From Chloroflexota bacterium (lineage in GTDB: Bacteria; Chloroflexota; Dehalococcoidia; SHYD01), in contig JACPQN010000018.1 of the NCBI GenBank assembly GCA_016190485.1, forward strand, positions 12,060-76,059: 64,000 nt of DNA. The letters are read 5' to 3'. A program made the translations under genes and the position numbers. Within the stretch, counting starts at the first letter, position 1; each line of letters opens with the position of its first letter. Under the pieces are notes generated by a model, which worked only from the letters and a program-made list of their open reading frames with translations, was not told the DNA's origin and made no database searches. This document shows positions 9,003-60,834 of the stretch, in pieces.

Positions 9003-9336
9003 CAACCAGGACTTTTATGCGTCTATCAACCTAAGCGCTGGGCGCTTTCTGGACTGGGCAATCACTGGTCTGTTTTATTCTGCCCCCCATTACGTAGACG
9101 CGTACCTGGCCACGCGAGGTACGGGGAGCGGAGTACATCCAGCGTCTCACCAGGACAGGGGACTGACCATATCGAGGGAGATCCTTCTCAGGAATATCTA
9201 CGGGGACTACCAGGAGCTAAAGAATCGAAGTGAGGACGCTAGGTATCGCTTGTTAAGATTTACTCCGGCCCAAGTTCAGCAGTTGCACGACAACGAGTTC
9301 CTCACTGTCCGCAACACCATCGTGCCGCATCTGTAA
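8965..9336 (+). CDS. hypothetical helical protein C (low-GC islet; weakly HEPN-like)
   Basis: ATG with GCGGAG upstream. All-helical-looking sequence …FLDWAITGLFYSAPHYVDAYLATRGTGSGVH… (an R-x6-H spacing) …YQELKNRSEDARY. The HEPN resemblance is by eye only. Confidence 0.5.
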   Translation: MPTRQQHLNQASDNQDFYASINLSAGRFLDWAITGLFYSAPHYVDAYLATRGTGSGVHPASHQDRGLTISREILLRNIYGDYQELKNRSEDARYRLLRFTPAQVQQLHDNEFLTVRNTIVPHL

Positions 9337-9629
9337 CCGTCAATACAGCTTGGCGACAGTGGGCTTAGTCGAGTGCTGTAAGAGTTACCCCCACACTGCG
9401 GCGTTACTCCACAGTACATTCAGGGAAGGAACTCAGGATCAGGGTAGTACCTGATTTCCCCCCGGCACTACTTAGCAGAAAGCCGCGCACACACAGGCGG
9501 TGTAACCTTGATCGCCGCAGCAGAAGTATCCCCGTAAACCCCCTGCAGGTCACCTGAGGTGACGTGCTCCCTCCCTGCTCTGCGCCCATGCATTCTAGTA
9601 CCTACTTTCGGAAAAGAGCGTAAGGACCT

Positions 9630-28489: not shown

Positions 28490-28498
28490 GCCGATAGT
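28490..28498 (+). promoter_or_regulatory. sigma-28 (FliA)-type -10 box GCCGATAGT upstream of the cheY-like gene
   Basis: Matches the GCCGATA core of the sigma-28/SigD -10 consensus. A second GCCGATAG lies at 28543-28550. No clear -35. Confidence 0.4.
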
Positions 28499-39265: not shown

Positions 39266-40000
39266 ATGACCACCGCCAGTGCCAGCCAGCACATCCCGCA
39301 CCTCAAGCTCGCGGTGACGGAGCGGGTGGAGTTGGAGCTGGTCCAGCAGGAGGAGCCGGAGCGCTATCCCACCAGGATCGCTGCGGTACAGGGCCCGCTG
39401 GTCACCGTCGAAGCGCCGCTGCGAAAGCTGGACATGGTGCCCATCCCGGCGGGGAGCCAGGTGCGCCTCTGGGCCTCTCGTCAGTACGCCAGCTTCTCGG
39501 CCCAGGCCACCGTAGAGGCCGCGTTCTGGGCGCCCATTGCCGCCCTGGTCTTGCGCCTTACATCGCCCTGGGCCCGCTTCCAGCACCGCTCCAGCGTGCG
39601 GCTGGAGACCTTGATGCAGCCGGAGCTGGCGGAGCTGGCGCTGCCCGACGGCCGCAGCTTTTCCATCGATCTCTCGGTGCGCAACCTCAGCGTCGGCGGC
39701 GCGCTGCTGGTCACTAAGCGCACACCAAAGAAGCCCCACCCGGATATCGGGCCCCGGCTGGACGCGGGCTTTTTGCGGGAGCACCTATCGGAGCTCCGGA
39801 TCCGACTCCTGTTGCCCTTAAGTGGCAGCAACCAACTGGAGCTGACAGGACGTCTGGTCCGGGTGGAAGAGGTGGAGGAGGAGCTGGAGTATCTCTTGCG
39901 CCTGGCCGTGCAGTTTGTTGATACCCCACTCCGGCACGAGGACATGCTGTTCCGTTTCATCTTTGAGGAGCAGAAGCGCCGCAGGAGGAAAGGCCTGTGA
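39266..40000 (+). CDS. PilZ domain protein (YcgR-like c-di-GMP receptor)
   Basis: N-terminal beta-barrel-like half, then PilZ motifs RSSVR (RxxxR) and NLSVGG (D/NxSxxG). ATG is 3 nt after the flhF stop. The tracked ORF from 38906 is an out-of-frame 5' extension. Confidence 0.85.
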   Translation: MTTASASQHIPHLKLAVTERVELELVQQEEPERYPTRIAAVQGPLVTVEAPLRKLDMVPIPAGSQVRLWASRQYASFSAQATVEAAFWAPIAALVLRLTSPWARFQHRSSVRLETLMQPELAELALPDGRSFSIDLSVRNLSVGGALLVTKRTPKKPHPDIGPRLDAGFLREHLSELRIRLLLPLSGSNQLELTGRLVRVEEVEEELEYLLRLAVQFVDTPLRHEDMLFRFIFEEQKRRRRKGL

Positions 40001-40302
40001 CGGGTAGCCAGGACGTCCACGGGGAGCTTGGCCGCCTCACTCTGGTCCTGGCGGCGGCGGCCGCGCTGGTGGCAGAGGTGGCGGGGCTGCTGGCCGGAGA
40101 TGGCCCGGAGCAGGCCCTGCTGAAGGCCTCGGTGGCCCTGGTGGGCACGGGGCTGATGGGAGGTGTCCTGGAGCTGGTGATGAGCCAGGCGTGGGGCCAG
40201 CCACGGCCGCCCCAGGCGCAAACGGAGGCCATGCAGCCGGAGGTGGAAGGCTCGGCCAGGCAGGGCAAGCCCGCAGATGGGGAGCTAGCAGCCAATGATT
40301 AG
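39997..40302 (+). CDS. hypothetical small membrane protein
   Basis: GTG overlaps the pilZ stop (GTGA) and the 3' end overlaps the fliA start by 8 nt. Two hydrophobic segments and very high third-position GC like neighbouring genes. No family recognised. Confidence 0.45.
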   Translation: MTGSQDVHGELGRLTLVLAAAAALVAEVAGLLAGDGPEQALLKASVALVGTGLMGGVLELVMSQAWGQPRPPQAQTEAMQPEVEGSARQGKPADGELAAND

Positions 40303-41080
40303 CCACGAGGCTCTCTGGACCGAGTTCGTTGCGCAGCGAGACCCGTCCCTCCGGGAACGGCTGATCCTCATGTACGCGCCCCTTGTGAAGTACGTTATCA
40401 ACCGGACGGCGGTCCCCATTTTCCGGCCCATGACCATCGAAGACGTGACGAGCTACGGCATCATCGGCCTCACCCACGCGGTGGACCGTTACGACCCCAC
40501 CAAGGGCGTCACCTTCGAGACCTACGCCATCCCCCGGGTGCGGGGCGCCATCATGGACGGCATGCGAGAGTCTGGCCTCTTCAGCCGGACGGATATGGCT
40601 AAAGTGCGGGAGCTGGAGCGCACCGTCGACGCCCTGCTGCACGAGCTGCAACGGTTTCCCACCACGGCGGAGCTGGCCGAGCGGACGAACATGCCCCCCA
40701 GAGAGGTAGAGCGCCTCATGCTGGTGAGCCGCACCACCTTCGTCTCCCTGGATGCTCCCGTGGAATCGGAGGACGGAGAGGACCGGGGTATGCTGCGGGA
40801 CCTCCTGGCCGACGACAAGAGTCCTAACCCCGTGGAGATTATGGAAGAGAAGGAGGTGCGGGCCGCCCTAATCCAGAGCATCCAAGCGCTGCCAGAGCGC
40901 AGCCGGCTGGTGATCTCCCTCTACTACGTGGACGAGCTCTCGCCCCTGGAGATCGCCGAGGTGCTGGGCGTCTCCCGCTCCCGGGTCTATCAGATCCATG
41001 CCCATGCCATCATGGAGCTGCGTGCCCTCATGCGATCCAAGCTGGGGCACCACGAGCTGCTGGCGGGCGTGCGGTCCTAG
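40295..41080 (+). CDS. fliA: flagellar sigma factor sigma-28 (FliA/SigD)
   Basis: Region 2 …GIIGLTHAVDRYDPTKGVTFETYAIPRVRGAIMDGMRE…, region 4 …LSPLEIAEVLGVSRSRVYQIHAHAI…. Confidence 0.92.
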   Translation: MISHEALWTEFVAQRDPSLRERLILMYAPLVKYVINRTAVPIFRPMTIEDVTSYGIIGLTHAVDRYDPTKGVTFETYAIPRVRGAIMDGMRESGLFSRTDMAKVRELERTVDALLHELQRFPTTAELAERTNMPPREVERLMLVSRTTFVSLDAPVESEDGEDRGMLRDLLADDKSPNPVEIMEEKEVRAALIQSIQALPERSRLVISLYYVDELSPLEIAEVLGVSRSRVYQIHAHAIMELRALMRSKLGHHELLAGVRS

Positions 41081-41086
41081 GAGGAA

Positions 41087-41743
41087 GTGACCGTGGGCAT
41101 CCAGATGTGGCGCATGCTGGCCAGCGTGACCCTGTTGATCATCCTGGGGCAGGCGGCCCTGCAACCGGAGGTGGTCCAGGGCAATGGCACCTCCATCAAG
41201 GTGGTGCTGAGCTACCTGAGCGGCGTCTCCAACTTCGGCTCCCAGAGCGCCGCGGGGGTGGCGGAGATCGTCATGAAAGAAGGGGAGATCAAGATCACCG
41301 CGCTGGGGATGCAGCCGCTCACCTCCCAGACCTACCAGGTCTGGCTGGCCAACACCCGCTCCGGTGAGGTGTGGAACGGCGGCAGGGTCAGCCCCGACCC
41401 ACGCGGCAACGTCTCCGCCACTAATATCCTGGCCGGAGAGATCCCGGACAAAGGCTATAATCTGGTCTTCCTGTCGGTGGAAGAACCGGACGTGGCGCCG
41501 CGGACGCCCAGCCAGCAGCGGTCCATCGCCGGCCATTTCCCCACCAGCCCCGCCCCCGGCCAGCAACCGGAGCAGTTGCCCAACACCGGAGATGCGCTAT
41601 CCGTGGATAACATCCGATTTGTGCCGGCCGCGCCGCCGGCCGCTCGGCCAGAGGGGGAGCCCTGGCGGCCCTGGGTCATGACGGCCCTGCTGCCGCTGGC
41701 GGCTGCCCTGGGCTTCTGGATCGGCCGGCGCTGCGGGGCCTGA
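41087..41743 (+). CDS. exported protein with RskA-C-terminal-like domain and LPNTG + C-terminal TM/basic tail
   Basis: N-terminal hydrophobic signal; …TSQTYQVWLANTRSGEVWNGGRV…LVFLSVEEP…; LPNTG at aa 164-168 (nt 41576-41590); helix WVMTALLPLAAALGFWI followed by GRRCGA. GTG at 41093 has better spacing from the AGGAGG SD. Confidence 0.7.
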   Translation: MTVGIQMWRMLASVTLLIILGQAALQPEVVQGNGTSIKVVLSYLSGVSNFGSQSAAGVAEIVMKEGEIKITALGMQPLTSQTYQVWLANTRSGEVWNGGRVSPDPRGNVSATNILAGEIPDKGYNLVFLSVEEPDVAPRTPSQQRSIAGHFPTSPAPGQQPEQLPNTGDALSVDNIRFVPAAPPAARPEGEPWRPWVMTALLPLAAALGFWIGRRCGA

Positions 41744-41755
41744 GAGGAGCGTAGC

Positions 41756-42499
41756 ATGATTCGAGGCGTCTATGTCGCAGCGGCGGGCATGGTGGCGTCC
41801 ATGACCCGGCTGAACCGGCTGGCCAACAACATCGCCAACGTGGCCACGCCGGGCTACAAGCAGGACGTGGCCAGCCCGGAGGTGTTTGAAGGGATGATGC
41901 TGGCGCGCGTTGGGCAGGCAGGTGGGCCCCAGCAGATCGGCCCCCTCACCACCGTGGTCGTGGCCGAACGGCCCCGGGTCGACCTGACCCAGGGCGCGCT
42001 CCAGGCTACGGGCGGAGAGCTGGACTTCTCGCTCTCGGGGCCGGGCTTCTTTGCGGTGGAAAAGGAGGGCGCCCGCTACTTCACCCGCAACGGCGCCTGG
42101 ATGCTAGACCCCAACCGCGCCCTGCGCACGCTGGACGGAGGCCTGGTGCTGGGCGCGGGCGGCCCCATTACCATCCCACCCGGCACCCTCACGGTCGAAA
42201 CCAACGGCCAACTGGCGGTGGACGGCCGCGTGGTAGACACCCTTTCCGTCGTCGATTTCCCGGAAGGCACGGCCTTCCAGAAGATCGGCCACAGCTACCT
42301 CCAGGCCGTGGGCGCAGAGGCTGTGCCGGCCCGAGCGTTCGAGGTGCACCAGGGCTTCCTGGAGGCCTCCAACGTGAATGCCATGGACTCCATGGTGGAG
42401 TTGCTCACCAGCCACAAGAACTACGGAGCAAGCCAGCGCTTCTTGCAGCTTGCCGATCAGGCCCTGGCCAAAGCCGTAAACGAGCTGGGCCGGGTCTAG
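41756..42499 (+). CDS. flgF: flagellar basal-body rod protein (FlgF/FlgG family)
   Basis: N-terminal …RLNRLANNIANVATPGYK…, C-terminal …GFLEASNVNAMDSMVELLTSHKNYGASQRFLQ…. Confidence 0.85.
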   Translation: MIRGVYVAAAGMVASMTRLNRLANNIANVATPGYKQDVASPEVFEGMMLARVGQAGGPQQIGPLTTVVVAERPRVDLTQGALQATGGELDFSLSGPGFFAVEKEGARYFTRNGAWMLDPNRALRTLDGGLVLGAGGPITIPPGTLTVETNGQLAVDGRVVDTLSVVDFPEGTAFQKIGHSYLQAVGAEAVPARAFEVHQGFLEASNVNAMDSMVELLTSHKNYGASQRFLQLADQALAKAVNELGRV

Positions 42500-42513: not shown

Positions 42514-43302
42514 ATGTCCAGCGCCATACGAGTGGCCGCCAGCGGCGCCCGGGCCCACCAGATCCGCCTGGACGTAGTGGGCCACAATCTGTCCAACGTG
42601 AATACCCCCGGCTTCAAGGCTACCCGCACCGATTTCCAGGACGACCGCTACATCGAGTTGCGGGCCGCTCGCCCAGGGCGAGAGGCCGGAGCCGGCGACC
42701 GGGCAGGGAGCTGGCTGGGCACCGGCGTCATCGTGGCCACCCGCCCCATCTTCGCCCAGGGGCCTATTGAGATCACCGACCAGTCCCTGGACCTGGCCAT
42801 CGTGGGGAACGGCTTCTTTCAGGTGCGTCATCCCGACGGCTCCCTCGCCTACACCCGGTCTGGGGCCTTCCGGGTGGACCCCCAGGGGCGGATGGTGACC
42901 GCGCATGGGTACCTGCTGGAGCCTCCCATCCAGGCGCCTGCAGGAGTCGCGGAGCTTAAGGTGGACCCTGAAGGGATCGTCAGCGCCCGAGTGGGACGAG
43001 AGGGAGCGCCGGTGCGATTGGGCACTCTGGCTCTGAGCACCTTTCCCAACCCAGAGGGCCTCGAGTCTCGGGGCTTCGGCATCTACGTGGCCTCGGAGAA
43101 GTCCGGCCAGCCCACTACAGTGCCCGCCGGGCAGGGAGGTAACGGCAGCATCGTTGCCGGCGCGCTGGAACGGTCCAACGTCGACCTAGAGGGCCAGATG
43201 GTGGCCCTGGTGGAAGCCCAGCGGGCCTACCAGCTCTCCCTCAAGGCGGTGCAGGCGCTCATCGAGATGACCCAGGAGGCCGTGGACCTACAGCGGCTCT
43301 AG
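42514..43302 (+). CDS. flgG: flagellar distal rod protein FlgG
   Basis: …RLDVVGHNLSNVNTPGFK…GNGFFQV…YTRSGAFRVD…GALERSNVDLEGQMVALVEAQRAYQ…. Confidence 0.9.
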   Translation: MSSAIRVAASGARAHQIRLDVVGHNLSNVNTPGFKATRTDFQDDRYIELRAARPGREAGAGDRAGSWLGTGVIVATRPIFAQGPIEITDQSLDLAIVGNGFFQVRHPDGSLAYTRSGAFRVDPQGRMVTAHGYLLEPPIQAPAGVAELKVDPEGIVSARVGREGAPVRLGTLALSTFPNPEGLESRGFGIYVASEKSGQPTTVPAGQGGNGSIVAGALERSNVDLEGQMVALVEAQRAYQLSLKAVQALIEMTQEAVDLQRL

Positions 43303-43389: not shown

Positions 43390-43398
43390 GCCGATAGT
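43390..43398 (+). promoter_or_regulatory. sigma-28-type -10 box GCCGATAGT upstream of flgM
   Basis: 34 nt upstream of the flgM ATG; AAGGAG SD follows. Confidence 0.45.
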
Positions 43399-43431: not shown

Positions 43432-43725
43432 ATGGAGATTGACAAAGTCGGGTCCAACCTTGCGCACCAGTACGTCTCCCAGACCCAGGCCGCACAGCAG
43501 ATAGCCGCGGTCAAGGGCGAGGCGGCCCGGAAAAGCTCGGGCCAGGACCGGGTAGACCTCTCGCCCGAGGCCCTGTTGCTGCAGCACGCCCAGCAGGCGG
43601 CGCTGGATGCCCCCGACCTGCGGGCGGACCTGGTGGACCAGGTGCGGCAGCGTATCGCCACGGGGAGCTACCAGATCGACGCCGCCCGGATTGCGGACAG
43701 GCTGCTGGGCGGCGATCTGGCCTAG
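43432..43725 (+). CDS. flgM: anti-sigma-28 factor FlgM
   Basis: 97 aa, …DRVDLSPEA…VDQVRQRIATGSYQIDAARIADRLL… is a typical FlgM C-terminus. Confidence 0.85.
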   Translation: MEIDKVGSNLAHQYVSQTQAAQQIAAVKGEAARKSSGQDRVDLSPEALLLQHAQQAALDAPDLRADLVDQVRQRIATGSYQIDAARIADRLLGGDLA

Positions 43726-47832: not shown

Positions 47833-47841
47833 GCCGATAGT
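47833..47841 (+). promoter_or_regulatory. sigma-28-type -10 box GCCGATAGT upstream of fliC
   Basis: 165 nt upstream of the fliC ATG; TAAC lies 13 nt upstream. Confidence 0.5.
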
Positions 47842-49287: not shown

Positions 49288-49296
49288 GCCGATAGT
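49288..49296 (+). promoter_or_regulatory. sigma-28-type -10 box GCCGATAGT upstream of the fliD unit
   Basis: Immediately after the fliC terminator and 61 nt upstream of the ORF at 49357. Confidence 0.45.
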
Positions 49297-49356
49297 CCCT
49301 TATAGGAGGCGGGTTCTTCCTAGGGTGGCTAGCGGCCGCGCCGGCAGGGGGAAGCC

Positions 49357-49695
49357 ATGAATCTACAGCCATTGAGTCCCACGGACAGTTTAACCCCCAT
49401 TACAGACAGCCGAATGCGACGTGAGCGGGGCAAGGCGCCCTTCTCGCGGCAGGGGCATCCGGATGCTCGCCAGACCCGGCCCGGCGCCAGCGCTGAGGTG
49501 GCCGCGGAGGCGACGGCGTCTTCCCCACCTCCGCGGCCCGCCTCCACGGCGCGGACAGCCCCCGCTGCCCCACTCGAACGCCGCCAGCCGGCGACCGAGG
49601 CGCCCGCTGTGGAGACCCGACAGCAACGGCTCCGCTCGGCGCTCCAGATGTACCGCCAGATAGATGCGGCAACTTCCCATCAGGAAGAAGGATAG
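49357..49695 (+). CDS. hypothetical Pro/Ala/Arg-rich protein in the flaG position
   Basis: GGGGGAAG SD plus ATG. The sequence looks disordered, with a short helical C-terminus (QQRLRSALQMYRQIDA), and does not resemble FlaG. All frames are open here, so coding status is uncertain. Confidence 0.35.
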   Translation: MNLQPLSPTDSLTPITDSRMRRERGKAPFSRQGHPDARQTRPGASAEVAAEATASSPPPRPASTARTAPAAPLERRQPATEAPAVETRQQRLRSALQMYRQIDAATSHQEEG

Positions 49696-52083: not shown

Positions 52084-52488
52084 ATGAAGCAAGCCTTAGG
52101 CCTCTACCAAGAGGTGCACACACGGACAGCCAATCCGGCAGAACTGGTGGTCATGCTGTACGAGGGGGCCGTCCGCTTTCTACGGCAGGCCCTCATTGGC
52201 ATGGAAGACGGAGACATCGAGAAAGTCCACAACAGCCTGGTGCGCGCTCAGCGGATCATTGAGGAGTTGGAGATGGCGGTAGACCCGCGCCACGGCCCCA
52301 TTGGCGACTCCCTCACTGCGCTCTATCGCTTCATGCTCTCGGAGCTGGAGCTGGCCAACGTACGGAAGGAACGGGCGCGGGTGCAGCCGGTGGTGGAGCT
52401 CCTGGAGGAGTTGCTGGGCGCCTGGCGCGAAGCCGGACGCCACGCGCCGGTGGCTACCGCCGCGGCGTCGCCGGCGCCGCGGGGATGA
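52084..52488 (+). CDS. fliS: flagellin chaperone FliS
   Basis: …YQEVHTRTANPAELVVMLYEGAVRFLRQA…LVRAQRIIEEL…. Confidence 0.9.
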   Translation: MKQALGLYQEVHTRTANPAELVVMLYEGAVRFLRQALIGMEDGDIEKVHNSLVRAQRIIEELEMAVDPRHGPIGDSLTALYRFMLSELELANVRKERARVQPVVELLEELLGAWREAGRHAPVATAAASPAPRG

Positions 52489-52838
52489 TGTGTGAGAGAG
52501 GAGTCGGTGGGATGCCGAACCTTGAGCGACTATACGGCATTGTGCAGGCCCAGAGGGCGGCCCTTCAGGGAAGGGACTTCCGGCGCTTCCAGGAGCTGCT
52601 CTGGGATCGGATCCAGGCCCAGGCCCACTTGGTAAGCGATCCGCCTGAGCAGACTCCGGCAGCGCGGGACTTGATCGAGGATATCCTGCTCATGGATCGC
52701 GCCATGGAGCTGCAGCTCCAGGACCTGCTCCAGGAGGCTGCCCAGGAGCTGAGCAGTCTGACCCGTCAGGAAGGCGCCCTGCGCGCGTACCTGCCAGCCG
52801 CGAGCACCGGTTCCTGCCTGATTGATCGCGCCTCCTAG
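52485..52838 (+). CDS. hypothetical helical protein (FliT/FlgN-like by position)
   Basis: ATGA overlap with the fliS stop. Helical …LYGIVQAQRAALQGRDFRRFQELLWDRIQ…; assignment is by position only. Confidence 0.5.
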   Translation: MMCERGVGGMPNLERLYGIVQAQRAALQGRDFRRFQELLWDRIQAQAHLVSDPPEQTPAARDLIEDILLMDRAMELQLQDLLQEAAQELSSLTRQEGALRAYLPAASTGSCLIDRAS

Positions 52839-52847
52839 CCGTTCGCC

Positions 52848-53594
52848 ATGGTCCAGGAGCCACGCAGTCTCCGCCAGGGGCAGTTGGCGGCCCAGCGGAC
52901 GCCGCCCTTCGACAAGCTCAGGACGCCGCCAGGCGAACAGAGCAGCCAAGACCGACGCCTGGGCCGGCGGCGGTTTCTCGTGACCCTGGCCGCCCTGGCG
53001 GGCATGGCTCTCCCTCTACTGGCCAAGACACGGGCAGAGGGGGGCTGGGACGTCGTCGCAGCGGAGCGGAGCGACGGGCAGGGCATGGAAACGCCTCAAA
53101 CGGACATCTCTAGCTCTCTTGCCCCCGCCCAGGCCACCATCCCTGTTCCCGCGGCAGCGGAGCGCGCTCCCAAGCTGCTGCCGCCGGTGCGCCTGGCCAT
53201 CCCCGCCATCCAGCTCGAGTCTCCTGTAGTGCCCCTGGGGGTTCGGTTCGACTATCGCGGCCAGCTGGAGTGGGAAACGGCTCCCTTCGTGGTAGGACAC
53301 TATGTGAACACGGCCAACCCCGGCGGGAGTGGCAACTGCGTCCTCAGCGGCCATATCAGCAGCCGCAGCGCGGGAGCGGTGTTCAAGCGTCTGCCGGAGG
53401 TGCAGCCGGGCGACGGCGTAGCGGTAGCTACCGTGGAGTCCCTGTTCCTCTACCAGGTCGTGAGTACGCAGGTGGTAGACCCCCGGGCCACCGAGGTCAT
53501 GGGGCCTGTGCGGGACGCGCAGCTAACCCTGCTGACCTGTGTGCCCGATGGGGTCTACAGCCACCGCCTGGTGGTCAGCGCCATCCTCCTCTAG
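52848..53594 (+). CDS. sortase family transpeptidase
   Basis: …NCVLSGHISS… (His), …QLTLLTCVP… (TLxTC Cys), …YSHRLVVSA (Arg). N-terminal RRLGRRRFLVTLAALAGMALPLLA anchor. Codons ~19-27 are a dispersed-repeat copy (PPFDKLRTP). Confidence 0.85.
   Translation: MVQEPRSLRQGQLAAQRTPPFDKLRTPPGEQSSQDRRLGRRRFLVTLAALAGMALPLLAKTRAEGGWDVVAAERSDGQGMETPQTDISSSLAPAQATIPVPAAAERAPKLLPPVRLAIPAIQLESPVVPLGVRFDYRGQLEWETAPFVVGHYVNTANPGGSGNCVLSGHISSRSAGAVFKRLPEVQPGDGVAVATVESLFLYQVVSTQVVDPRATEVMGPVRDAQLTLLTCVPDGVYSHRLVVSAILL
52902..52930. repeat. dispersed hairpin-repeat copy inside the sortase 5' region
   Basis: CCGCCCTTCGACAAGCTCAGGACGCCGCC. Confidence 0.6.
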
Positions 53595-53764
53595 GGGCTT
53601 CCTCCCCTTTCAGGCAGTGCCGATCGGCCCGTACCAGCGGTACTTTTTCCCCCTCTGGCCGCCCTTCCCCAGCCCTCCGTCTCTGGCCGTATTGCCCTGT
53701 AACGTGCCCCATCCTACGCCTACGATGGAGCTACCACTTCTCTCAGAGGCAAGGAGGGGAAGCC

Positions 53765-54202
53765 ATGAGCGTCTTCAACACCTTTTCCATCTGCGGCTCG
53801 GCGCTAACCGCGCAGCGGCTGCGCATGGACGTCATCTCCAGCAACATCGCCAATGCCGAGACCACCCACACGCCCGAGGGCGGTCCCTACCGGCGGCGAC
53901 AGGTGCACTTCGCTCCAGTGCCGTCCCAGGAGCTGGGCGCTCCACGCGTCCGGGAGCGCGCGGCCACCGCCGGCGTAGCCGTGGAACGCATCGTCACCGA
54001 CGAGCGCCCGCCCCGCCTGGTGCTGGATCCGGAGCACCCCGACGCCGACACCAACGGCTACGTGGCCTACCCCAACGTCGACATCGTCACGGAGATGGTG
54101 GACCTCCTCTCCGCCACCCGGGCCTACGAGGCCAACATCACCGTGGTCAACACCGCCAAGACCATGGCGCAGCGGGCCATGGAGATCGGCGGTCGCGGCT
54201 AG
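53765..54202 (+). CDS. flgC: flagellar proximal rod protein FlgC
   Basis: …GSALTAQRLRMDVISSNIANAETT…GGPYRRRQVHF…DPEHPDADTNGYVAYPNVDIVTEMVDLLSATRAYEANI… AAGGAGG SD. The tracked ORF from 53270 is a spurious extension. Confidence 0.92.
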   Translation: MSVFNTFSICGSALTAQRLRMDVISSNIANAETTHTPEGGPYRRRQVHFAPVPSQELGAPRVRERAATAGVAVERIVTDERPPRLVLDPEHPDADTNGYVAYPNVDIVTEMVDLLSATRAYEANITVVNTAKTMAQRAMEIGGRG

Positions 54203-59224: not shown

Positions 59225-59654
59225 AGCGCTGCTCCGGTACCGCCGCTGGCTGGTGGAGGTGCTCCAGTTGGAGGTCTCTGTGCTGCGCCTCTCCCTGGAT
59301 GCCGCGACCCGGCGCCTACAAGCGTTGCACGGCCGGCGGAGCGCGGCGCTGCTGGCGCTCCGCCGGCGCCAGGAGGAAGCGCCCCTGGACCCCCACGCCA
59401 CGCAGCGGCGCCTGCGCGAGCTGGAGCGCATCGGGCGCGCAATCCAGGAGCAGGAGGAAGCGATGGTGGCGCTGCACGGGCGACTGGAGCAGAAGCAGCA
59501 GGCCCTACTGGAGCGTAGCCAGTCCAAGTGGCTGCTGGAGCGGCTAGAACAGCAGGACCGGACGCGGCTGCGGCAGCGCCTGCGCCAGATCGAAACCAAA
59601 GCAATGGATGAGTCCGCCCAGGCAGGTTACCTGCGGCAGGAAGAAGGCGGGTGA
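59208..59654 (+). CDS. fliJ: flagellar export protein FliJ
   Basis: 148-aa coiled coil …[11 protein letters not shown]…[11 protein letters not shown]…[10 protein letters not shown]. Overlaps fliI by 17 nt. Confidence 0.75.
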
Positions 59655-60418
59655 TGGAGCTCGAGGGTATGCAATGGCGGGATCTCACCCTGTTGGCTGC
59701 GGCCAGGGCCGGCCCGGCTTCCACGCGCCCCGGCGCGGCCCCGGACGCCCCGGCCTTTGCCCGGGTGCTGCAGCGGCGCCTGCTCATGCGGGCGCTGGGC
59801 GACGGCCCCCGGTCCGGGGGCACGGGGTTCGGGGCCGGCGGCGACCTGGGGCTGGTCTTCGCGTTGCTGCTGGCCCGCGGGTTCCGCGGAGGCTATGCCC
59901 AGAGCCCTGCCCAGGCCGGGGCGCCCGCGAGCACATCGCAGAGCCGCGCTCGCCAGGATCGCCCCCCCTCAGGGGCGGGAGCGACACCGCTGCCTGCGGC
60001 CGCAGAGGCCTATCGCGGGCTCATCGAAGAGGCAGCCCGCCGCTACGACGTGCCGGCCGCCCTCATCGCCGCCGTGGCGCATGCCGAGTCCGGCTTCAAC
60101 CCCAACGCGCTTTCTCCCGCCGGCGCCATGGGCCTGATGCAGCTCATGCCCGGCACCGCCGCCGGCCTGGATGTCCAGAACCCTTGGAGCCCCGCCGAGA
60201 ACATCGACGGGGGCGCCCGCTACCTACGCCGGGCGCTGGACCGCTACAACGGCGACCTCCGGCTGGTGCTCCAGGCCTACAACGCGGGCGCCGGAGCGGT
60301 CGAACGGTACCAGGGCGACGTGCCCTACGAGGAGACCCGCCGCTACCTCGCACGCACCCTGGCCCTGCTGCAGCGCTATCAGGCTATCCCACCCAGTCTC
60401 ACGGAGGTGCAGGCATGA
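59651..60418 (+). CDS. lytic transglycosylase (SLT domain), flagellar-cluster associated
   Basis: …[30 protein letters not shown]…[11 protein letters not shown]…[11 protein letters not shown]… 4-nt overlaps with both fliJ and flgB. Confidence 0.88.
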
Positions 60419-60834
60419 GCAGGCCCCTTTCAGCCGACCAGGCGCTGCAGAGCGCGCTGAACGCCCTGGCGCTGCGGCAGCGGATCATCTCCAACAACGT
60501 GGCCAACGTGGATACGCCGTCCTTCAAGAAGTCGGATGTGCGCTTTGAGGAGTTCCTCAACGCGGAGCTGCGCCAGGACCAGAGCGGGCTACTCCTGGCC
60601 CTGGCCCGCTCTAACGCCCGTCACCTGGATCCCTTTTTCAGCTCGGGTGGCGCGCTGCGCAGTGAGGTGGTGACTGTGCCGGACGCCAAGCTCCGGTCTG
60701 ACGGTAACAGCGTGGACATCGATCTGGAGATGCTCCACCTGGCCGAGACGGCCACCACCTACAGCGCCCTCTCCCGCCTGGCGGGGATGCGCCTAGCCCT
60801 CCTGAAGAGCGCTGTGACCGAAGGACGTCGCTAG
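60415..60834 (+). CDS. flgB: flagellar proximal rod protein FlgB
   Basis: …[30 protein letters not shown]…[27 protein letters not shown]… The tracked ORF from 59608 is an out-of-frame extension. Confidence 0.9.

Follow-up and report, generated by a model that had tools for sequence, protein, structure and literature searches.

A Conserved Family of RskA_C-Fold Proteins With a Sortase Sorting Signal, Encoded Between fliA and flgF in Chloroflexota

INTRODUCTION

Flagellated Chloroflexota are monoderm and lack flgH and flgI (PMC10284905). How the rod is seated in a thick wall without an outer membrane is poorly understood, and such cells have no P and L rings; the genome paper of Thermomicrobium roseum described flagellar anchoring as "ambiguous" and left open how the flagellum "would attach" (PMC2615216). 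The present analysis concerns a 64,000-nucleotide stretch of DNA (hereafter, the window) from a Chloroflexota metagenome-assembled genome (MAG; contig JACPQN010000018.1), in which a gene of unusual character (41087–41743, + strand) separates the sigma-28 gene fliA from the rod genes flgF and flgG. Its product belongs to a real, conserved, and hitherto uncharacterized family that combines a domain of the kind found in the anti-sigma factor RskA with the C-terminal signal of a sortase substrate. LPXTG proteins and RskA_C domains are both known kinds; the flagellar setting is new.

In Bacillus subtilis, the gene immediately after sigD encodes SwrB, a single-pass protein with a cytoplasmic domain. 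Another small flagellar accessory, the E-ring protein FlgY/FlbB/YlxF, carries an MgtE_N ARM-like domain, is encoded beside fliJ/fliK, and encircles the MS-ring (PMC13023049). In RskA, the cytoplasmic N-terminal part binds and inhibits SigK (PMC7509140). Full-text literature searches turned up no description of a flagellar component anchored by a sortase, nor of a Chloroflexota flagellar operon that contains a sortase gene, and neither the T. roseum genome paper nor the Tepidiforma paper mentions a sortase.

A GENE FIXED UPSTREAM OF flgF

The gene encodes a 218-aa protein from a GTG start. Gaps of 6 and 12 nt separate it from the fliA stop (41080) and the flgF start (41756), respectively, spacings already given in a preliminary description of the locus and borne out by the sequence. 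An AGGAGGA motif at the fliA stop lies 2 nt from GTG 41087 and 8 nt from an in-frame GTG at 41093; because of this spacing, the second GTG may be the likelier start, which would remove two residues and leave all else unchanged. Between fliA, the open reading frame (ORF) 41087–41743, and flgF/flgG, no terminator-like site was found on the + strand, nor any sigma-70-like promoter that would separate them. Pfam and NCBIfam confirmed the window neighbors FlhF, a PilZ/YcgR-like protein, FliA, FlgF, FlgG, FlgM, FlgN, FliD, the sortase, FliF, and FliG. In the immediate surroundings, all on the + strand, fliA (40295–41080; Pfam Sigma70 regions 2, 3, and 4), whose stop overlaps the Shine–Dalgarno sequence of the family gene, is followed by the family gene, flgF (proximal rod; 41756–42499), flgG (distal rod; 42514–43302), and flgM (43432–43725; Pfam FlgM, 62.8 bits), which encodes the canonical anti-sigma-28 factor. 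NCBI lists an identical protein from a Chloroflexi MAG, annotated as hypothetical.

The position is shared widely within the phylum. In about 18 distinct loci, from Thermomicrobia, Dehalococcoidia, and other lineages, flgF is immediately preceded by the family gene, and the order fliA–(zero or one small ORF)–family gene–flgF–flgG is kept at every locus with a visible fliA–flgF junction. The preliminary description had named synteny with fliA and flgF in related genomes as a test of its proposal, and synteny was found at every locus examined. These loci comprise three close orthologues of the window protein, Thermomicrobium sp. 4228-Ro, a contig with a protein that UniRef assigns to Thermorudis peleae, further uncultured lineages, and six Chloroflexi/Dehalococcoidia MAGs in GTDB. 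Two members only 25–28% identical to the window protein occupy the same slot, and on the megaplasmid of T. roseum DSM 5159 the gene directly upstream of flgF is TRD_RS09470, a "hypothetical protein" with an LPQTG signal. A search of GTDB representatives with a tight family alignment returned no loci, and a distant single member used as the query did find them. One flgF-adjacent locus was recovered independently through a FlgK-centered metagenome scan, as the sole informative locus of that scan. In several relatives, the family gene overlaps flgF by 4 nt. Gene spacing and synteny place the family gene in one transcript with fliA and flgF/flgG, and translational coupling among them is probable.

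This constancy bears on one alternative, namely that the protein is an ordinary, non-flagellar surface protein placed in the cluster by chance. LPXTG proteins are common in Chloroflexota, and in T. roseum the gene for an adhesin-like beta-helix protein with LPATG adjoins a flagellar operon. However, the slot before flgF is fixed across classes of the phylum, down to 25% identity and with translational coupling, and the RskA_C relatives outside flagellar clusters differ in architecture and have no LPxTG. A chance placement is scarcely credible.

In lineages outside the window's clade, one extra ORF (127–291 aa) stands between fliA and the family gene; it is absent in the window's clade. Examples lie at 9614–9997 of contig L005, 2113–2595 of L006, 19613–19996 of L015, 9492–10004 of L017, and 9015–9890 of L018. 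Its product has an N-terminal transmembrane helix, an RRQR sequence, and a charged cytoplasmic region, with a possible C-terminal helix-turn-helix in L017 and L018. The T. roseum copy carries the odd PGAP name "histidine kinase for metal resistance."

ARCHITECTURE OF THE FAMILY

An exhaustive profile search retrieved 206 family representatives (50% clustering) at E ≤ 1e-3, 143 of which fall at E ≤ 1e-10; nearly all are 200–250 aa long. A word-indexed search returned only three relatives, with 85, 56, and 55% identity. From N- to C-terminus, family members share a signal peptide whose AxA↓NG site is conserved, a beta-sandwich of ~115 aa, and a short linker, after which come LPxTG, a hydrophobic helix, and an Arg/Lys tail. 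In the window protein, the hydrophobic N-terminus (aa 10–25), the LPNTG motif (aa 164–168), the 27-aa spacer, the helix, and the GRRCGA tail stand at the residues at which the preliminary description had placed them.

The predicted signal peptide covers aa 1–32 (41087–41182), with Arg9 in the n-region, an h-region at aa 10–25, and a c-region ending in VQG↓NG. By inspection, all three regions of a Sec signal peptide are present, and AlphaFold2 predicts residues 3–24 to be helical. In a 14-sequence alignment, the relatives have AxA↓NG where the window protein has VQG↓NG, and N33–G34 is invariant. A conserved AxA↓NG behind a variable hydrophobic segment is the pattern of a cleaved signal peptide.

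An AlphaFold2 model built on an alignment of 100 family members reached a mean predicted local distance difference test (pLDDT) score of 87.4; an earlier model from four sequences was unusable (pLDDT 48). It contains a helix at residues 3–24, an eight-stranded beta-sandwich at residues 37–150 (pLDDT >95), and a C-terminal helix at residues 196–217, with a linker and spacer of low order. Along the + strand, the RskA_C-like Greek-key beta-sandwich (aa 35–150; 41189–41536) is followed by a Pro-rich linker of 13 aa (41537–41575) between the folded domain and the sorting motif, the LPNTG motif (41576–41590), a Pro/Ala-rich spacer whose sequence and length vary across the family (aa 169–195; 41591–41671), a predicted hydrophobic membrane-retention helix WVMTALLPLAAALGFWI (aa 196–212; 41672–41722), and the basic tail GRRCGA (aa 213–218; 41723–41740), for which a cytoplasmic location is predicted. 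The distance from SIAG in the last beta-strand to LPxTG has a family median of 16 aa and is 15 in the window protein. The mature, anchored polypeptide would be about 135–138 aa long. Pilin-like polymerization was considered and rejected, as the invariant columns of the family include no conserved Lys or pilin motif.

THE RskA_C-LIKE DOMAIN

The preliminary description had recognized by eye a resemblance of the central segment to the C-terminal domain of RskA. This holds at the level of the family and not directly for the window protein, which Pfam leaves unmatched. PF10099 (RskA_C) matches 35 of 100 family members, the best at 2.3e-14, and a precomputed PF10099 match is present on most Thermomicrobium/Thermorudis members. 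Two members, P0007 (31.5 bits) and P0009 (32.0 bits), which share about 34–46% identity with the window protein, exceed the PF10099 gathering cut-off of 29.4 and cover nearly the full model. One member bears the UniRef name [quoted passage not shown] A comparison by hhalign of the family with bona fide anti-sigma factors of Exiguobacterium, composed of zf-HC2, a transmembrane segment, and RskA_C, gave 88.6% probability and E = 2.7e-6 over 98 columns. The PF10099 model begins in the transmembrane helix of RskA, which aligns with the family's N-terminal hydrophobic segment, and the beta-sandwich carries the family motifs SNxG, YQxW, VE(E/P)P, and SIAG.

Where the domain occurs outside flagellar clusters, LPxTG is lacking and the architecture is a different one; the nearest of these relatives, in Exiguobacterium, show the full anti-sigma architecture. 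MAGs labelled Polyangiaceae/Myxococcota contain stand-alone RskA_C proteins with lipoprotein-like N-termini, and Bacteroidota contain tandem-domain versions (L025–L027, L038–L039); none is in a flagellar context. Evidently, the RskA_C domain is used outside anti-sigma factors in several phyla. A sequence-profile search of the PDB gave only a spurious low-complexity match. Foldseek against the PDB returned only weak Greek-key matches resembling Cu,Zn superoxide dismutase (SOD; E ≥ 6e-3, template modeling scores 0.36/0.61) and no flagellar, peptidoglycan-binding, or anti-sigma structure. A SOD-like function was rejected, as the family has no conserved His metal ligands.

The homology raises the question of whether the protein is an envelope sensor or regulator of sigma-28, in which an RskA-derived module would read the status of the wall or of assembly and feed into FliA/FlgM control, for example via a membrane partner. 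RskA-type anti-sigma factors carry a homologous sensor domain, the gene adjoins a sigma factor gene with which gene order places it in one transcript, as is usual for anti-sigma genes, and other lineages have a single-pass membrane ORF between fliA and the family gene. Yet the cytoplasmic part that such a regulator would use is missing: RskA binds and inhibits its sigma factor through its N-terminal cytoplasmic part (PMC7509140), and here, in agreement with the preliminary description, nothing precedes the N-terminal hydrophobic segment. Pfam finds no zf-HC2 or other cytoplasmic anti-sigma domain in the window protein or the family, and sortase processing would remove the only cytoplasmic residues, GRRCGA. 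In addition, the cluster already encodes FlgM, the upstream FliA is a group 3 sigma factor with regions 2, 3, and 4 and not of the extracytoplasmic function (ECF) type paired with RskA, the intervening ORFs of other lineages are predicted to be N-out/C-in and lack zf-HC2, and a conserved sortase signal is unexpected for a signaling protein. A split anti-sigma factor, with its parts in separate genes, was rejected, as the small ORFs flanking fliA have N-out/C-in topology and no zinc-finger motif. The family protein is no anti-sigma factor. Because the mature protein would have no cytoplasmic part, FlgM is present, and the ORFs flanking fliA have the wrong topology, a sensor of sigma-28 is disfavored as well, and we judge it unlikely.

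THE SORTING SIGNAL

LPNTG is unchanged in all four of the closest orthologues, the most distant of them at 55% identity, as the preliminary description had asked of a genuine signal; the helix and a GRR/GRK tail are kept with it, and the spacer sequence drifts. Across the family, an exact LPxT[G/A] within 75 residues upstream of the helix and basic tail is present in 118 of the 129 representatives with an intact C-terminus (91%), against a chance expectation of 0.9%. Near-variants occur in four more (MPETG, LPVSG twice, and RPETG). The x position of LPxT[G/A] is free to vary (N in 33, R in 18, V in 14, K and E in 11 each, among others). The distance from motif to helix is spread continuously between 0 and about 48 aa (median 11); the 27 aa of the window protein, rightly called longer than usual in the preliminary description, fall in the upper quartile and are not an outlier. 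Many members have the textbook short spacer, and the Pfam model Gram_pos_anchor (PF00746) matches 8 of 100 relatives, the best at 4.8e-5. A six-frame scan of the window found ORF 41087–41743 to be the only one with an LPxTG-like motif, a hydrophobic stretch, and a basic tail. Judged by its sequence, the window protein fits the definition of a sortase substrate.

The same data can be set against the possibility that the C-terminal helix is a permanent anchor, so that the product would be a bitopic, periplasm-like flagellar protein held in the membrane and not in the wall, with LPxTG kept for some other reason. The unusually long spacer of the window's clade and the failure of the window protein to match any LPXTG-anchor hidden Markov model would suit such a protein. 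However, a motif that is exact in 91% of cases while x and the flanks are free to vary is the signature of an enzyme recognition site, the spacing is of textbook length in many members, eight members match PF00746, and a sortase is encoded in the same regulon. Permanent membrane anchoring is accordingly regarded as highly improbable.

THE SORTASE AND ITS OPERON

The candidate processing enzyme is a sortase encoded at 52848–53594 (+ strand), which the preliminary description had noted in the same supercluster and which proved to be real (Pfam Sortase PF04203, 92.5 bits; TIGR01076, 58.5 bits against a cut-off of 39.35), with a position conserved in relatives. Its sequence shows an N-terminal RRRFL membrane or Tat-like anchor, a linker of ~50 aa, and His169 (SGH), Cys231 (TLLTC), and Arg240, so that the catalytic triad is intact. 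It fits no class from A to F in NCBIfam, scoring 65.7 bits for class F (cut-off 166) and 62.8 bits for class E (cut-off 160). In the annotated N-terminal region (52848–53000), the segment GRRRFLVTLAALAG looks like both a twin-arginine signal and a signal anchor. As it comes after ~40 residues of poor conservation, the sortase may in fact start further downstream.

The sortase gene starts 10 nt after a fliT-like gene (52485–52838, + strand; Pfam FliT, 25 bits, below the cut-off), at the position where FliT is called in contigs L012–L014, and flgC (53765–54202, + strand), fliE, and fliF lie downstream of it. The three nearest sortase homologues on long contigs (L012–L014; 56–59% identity) all stand behind fliS–fliT. 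In L012 and L013, flgC–fliE–fliF follow the sortase, and the third contig is rearranged downstream with fliS–fliT–sortase kept.

A sigma-28-type −10 box, CTGGCCGATAGT (49289–49296, + strand), precedes the unit orfX–fliD–fliS–fliT–sortase and recurs in the same place in L012, L013, and L014; in L014, it is part of TAAA-N16-CCGATAA. The octamer CCGATAGT occurs four times in the window, all on the + strand, against 0.6 expected. Three copies precede flgM (43391–43398; distance 41 nt), flagellin (47834–47841; 172 nt), and orfX–fliD–fliS–fliT–sortase (49289–49296; 44 nt), and the conserved extended −10 element in the window is CTG(G)CCGATAGT. The fourth copy (28491–28498) is upstream of a + strand gene block that starts at ~29445. 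The −10 box likewise precedes flgM in L002, L014, and T. roseum. In the window, the strict sigma-28 consensus TAAA-N14-17-CCGATA has no match, a loose pattern with a −35 constraint also failed, and no canonical TAAA −35 element is recognizable at the window copies. Because the box is conserved upstream of the fliD…sortase unit, the sortase gene probably closes a late operon that depends on FliA. A small Pro/Ala/Arg-rich ORF (49333–49692, + strand) with an internal ATG start (MNLQPLSPTD...) lies between the flagellin terminator region and fliD; its slot is occupied by FlaG in L013 and L014 and by an unannotated 110-aa ORF in L012.

In T. roseum, a class F sortase ends another flagellar operon (fliF…flgE–x–sortase). 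The gene x and this sortase gene, together at 9073–12438 of L016 (NC_011961.1, 630857–634222), directly follow flgE on the same strand, the sortase 4 nt downstream of x; flgE itself is preceded, at a distance of 32 nt, by a GCCGATAA box.

A PROPOSED ROLE AT THE CELL WALL

On balance, and with moderate confidence, the product of ORF 41087–41743 is proposed to be a small, Sec-exported protein that a sortase attaches covalently to peptidoglycan, serving as a lineage-specific accessory of the monoderm, FlgH/FlgI-less Chloroflexota flagellum. After expression with fliA and flgF/flgG, the N-terminal signal peptide would be cleaved at VQG↓NG. The C-terminal helix and Arg tail would then keep the precursor in the membrane and leave LPNTG exposed, as the conserved tripartite signal suggests. 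By analogy with characterized sortases, the enzyme would cut between Thr167 and Gly168 and join Thr167 to the wall; in the window's clade, this would probably be the sortase of the sigma-28-type late operon. The mature protein of ~135 aa would present one RskA_C-fold beta-sandwich ~15 residues from its anchor point and would therefore sit inside the wall rather than on a stalk. Because the gene is fixed upstream of the rod genes, the likeliest site of action would be where the rod crosses the peptidoglycan. Any role there, whether as a stationary wall-side bearing, a scaffold, or a factor that assists wall penetration during assembly, is speculative. Of the two roles offered in the preliminary description, a sensor or anti-sigma function seems, again as speculation, less likely than a wall-level bushing. 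The testable elements of that description were all borne out, and none of the results it had named as refuting was obtained.

Several observations weigh against this proposal. Pfam and NCBIfam scans of the window protein itself gave no match even at E ≤ 10, either to RskA_C or to PF00746 and the NCBIfam LPXTG-anchor models. The 27-aa spacer exceeds that of textbook substrates, and the fold, with its weak SOD-like matches only, gives no pointer to ring formation or to binding of the rod or of peptidoglycan. The x protein of T. roseum, beside the class F sortase, is a 900-aa right-handed beta-helix/PMP-repeat protein with LPATG, and that sortase may serve x and not the flagellum. There is no sortase within 10 kb in L043 and none near the family gene in Thermomicrobium. 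The family retains LPxTG all the same, so that a dedicated sortase is not universal.

The mode of action within the wall can be divided further. In one version of the proposal, the protein is a permanent part of the motor: the sortase of the sigma-28 regulon would covalently fix copies of the beta-sandwich to the peptidoglycan around the rod, where they would take the place of the missing P and L rings as a bearing on the wall side or as a stator scaffold. We offer this as a possibility that is more doubtful than probable. If true, it would be the first covalently wall-anchored flagellar component, with the first sortase dedicated to flagellar assembly. Alternatively, the protein could be a transient assembly factor, tethered to the wall, that guides or restrains the lytic transglycosylase or M23 peptidase of the cluster or that chaperones rod assembly, in analogy to the roles of FlgA and FlgJ in diderms. 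Gene order predicts co-expression with the rod genes, hydrolase genes are present in flagellar clusters (SLT in L012–L014, with M23 and SLT together in L013, and an M23-family endopeptidase in T. roseum), and a compact wall-embedded form would fit. However, Pfam, NCBIfam, and Foldseek show no homology to FlgA, FlgJ, or hydrolase regulators, and covalent anchoring suggests a long-lived, stationary product, so that a transient role appears rather unlikely.

The proposal that a wall-attached flagellar accessory is encoded here has broader implications. If it is true, sortase biology would extend from adhesins and pili to a rotary machine, and the family would be a case of an anti-sigma sensor domain turned into a wall protein in its own right. 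A conserved sortase-targeted protein and a sortase in a sigma-28-type late flagellar operon are testable candidates for wall-level components, and cultured relatives exist, namely T. roseum DSM 5159 and the motile Tepidiforma.

OTHER FEATURES OF THE LOCUS

A 101-aa ORF (39997–40302, + strand) with two hydrophobic segments and an acidic tail overlaps the fliA start and has no Pfam or NCBIfam match. Small two-transmembrane ORFs (89–109 aa) also stand before fliA in Thermomicrobium, in the contig with a Thermorudis-named protein, and in L018; the first two of these share 42% identity. Further downstream (53595–54202), flgC–fliE–fliF have no flgB in front of them, and a 170-nt gap follows the sortase. 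A Flg_bb_rod motif was found at residues 279–307 of a 408-aa ORF (59608–60834). In the T. roseum cluster, flgB comes after fliJ and the M23 endopeptidase gene, and in L012 and L013 an unnamed Flg_bb_rod ORF of 125–133 aa follows fliJ and an SLT hydrolase gene. Because flgB or a Flg_bb_rod ORF follows fliJ and a hydrolase gene in these three clusters, the window flgB is probably in the same place, and the 408-aa ORF is probably an over-extension.

COMPARISON WITH KNOWN SYSTEMS

With RskA of the RskA/SigK system of Mycobacterium tuberculosis (PF10099), the family shares a homologous extracytoplasmic beta-sandwich with the Y-x-x-W and (T/S)VEPEP motifs. Unlike RskA-type factors, it has no zf-HC2 or anti-sigma domain, shows a predicted signal-peptidase site after the hydrophobic segment, and has gained an LPxTG signal; its neighbor is sigma-28 and not an ECF sigma factor, in a cluster that already has FlgM. 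The family resembles FlgY/FlbB/YlxF in being a small accessory of flagellar clusters, a kind only recently recognized and widely overlooked, monoderms included (PMC13023049). It differs in being all-beta, in its place between fliA and flgF, and in its sortase signal, and the two are unrelated. The family gene also recalls swrB in that it follows the sigma-28 gene of a monoderm flagellar operon. However, the SwrB-like position and topology are those of the extra fliA-adjacent ORF of other Chloroflexota and not of the family itself.

Like the LPXTG surface proteins of monoderms, which are substrates of sortases A, E, and F (PF00746), family members have a signal peptide, LPxTG, a hydrophobic stretch, and a positive tail, with a sortase nearby in the window. 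Unlike them, they are very small and have one domain on a linker of ~15 aa in place of a long wall-spanning stalk. The 27-aa spacer of the window's clade, the flagellar operon in place of an adhesin or pilus locus, and the lack of a pilin motif or Lys further set them apart. With FlgI/FlgH and the periplasmic scaffolds FlgP, FlgT, and PflA/B, the family shares its place with the distal-rod genes, a predicted export by Sec rather than by the type III system, and a predicted residence at the level of the peptidoglycan, here in an organism without FlgH/FlgI. Pfam, NCBIfam, and Foldseek searches of the PDB revealed no sequence or fold similarity to FlgI/FlgH, and, in contrast to theirs, the attachment of the family protein would be covalent.

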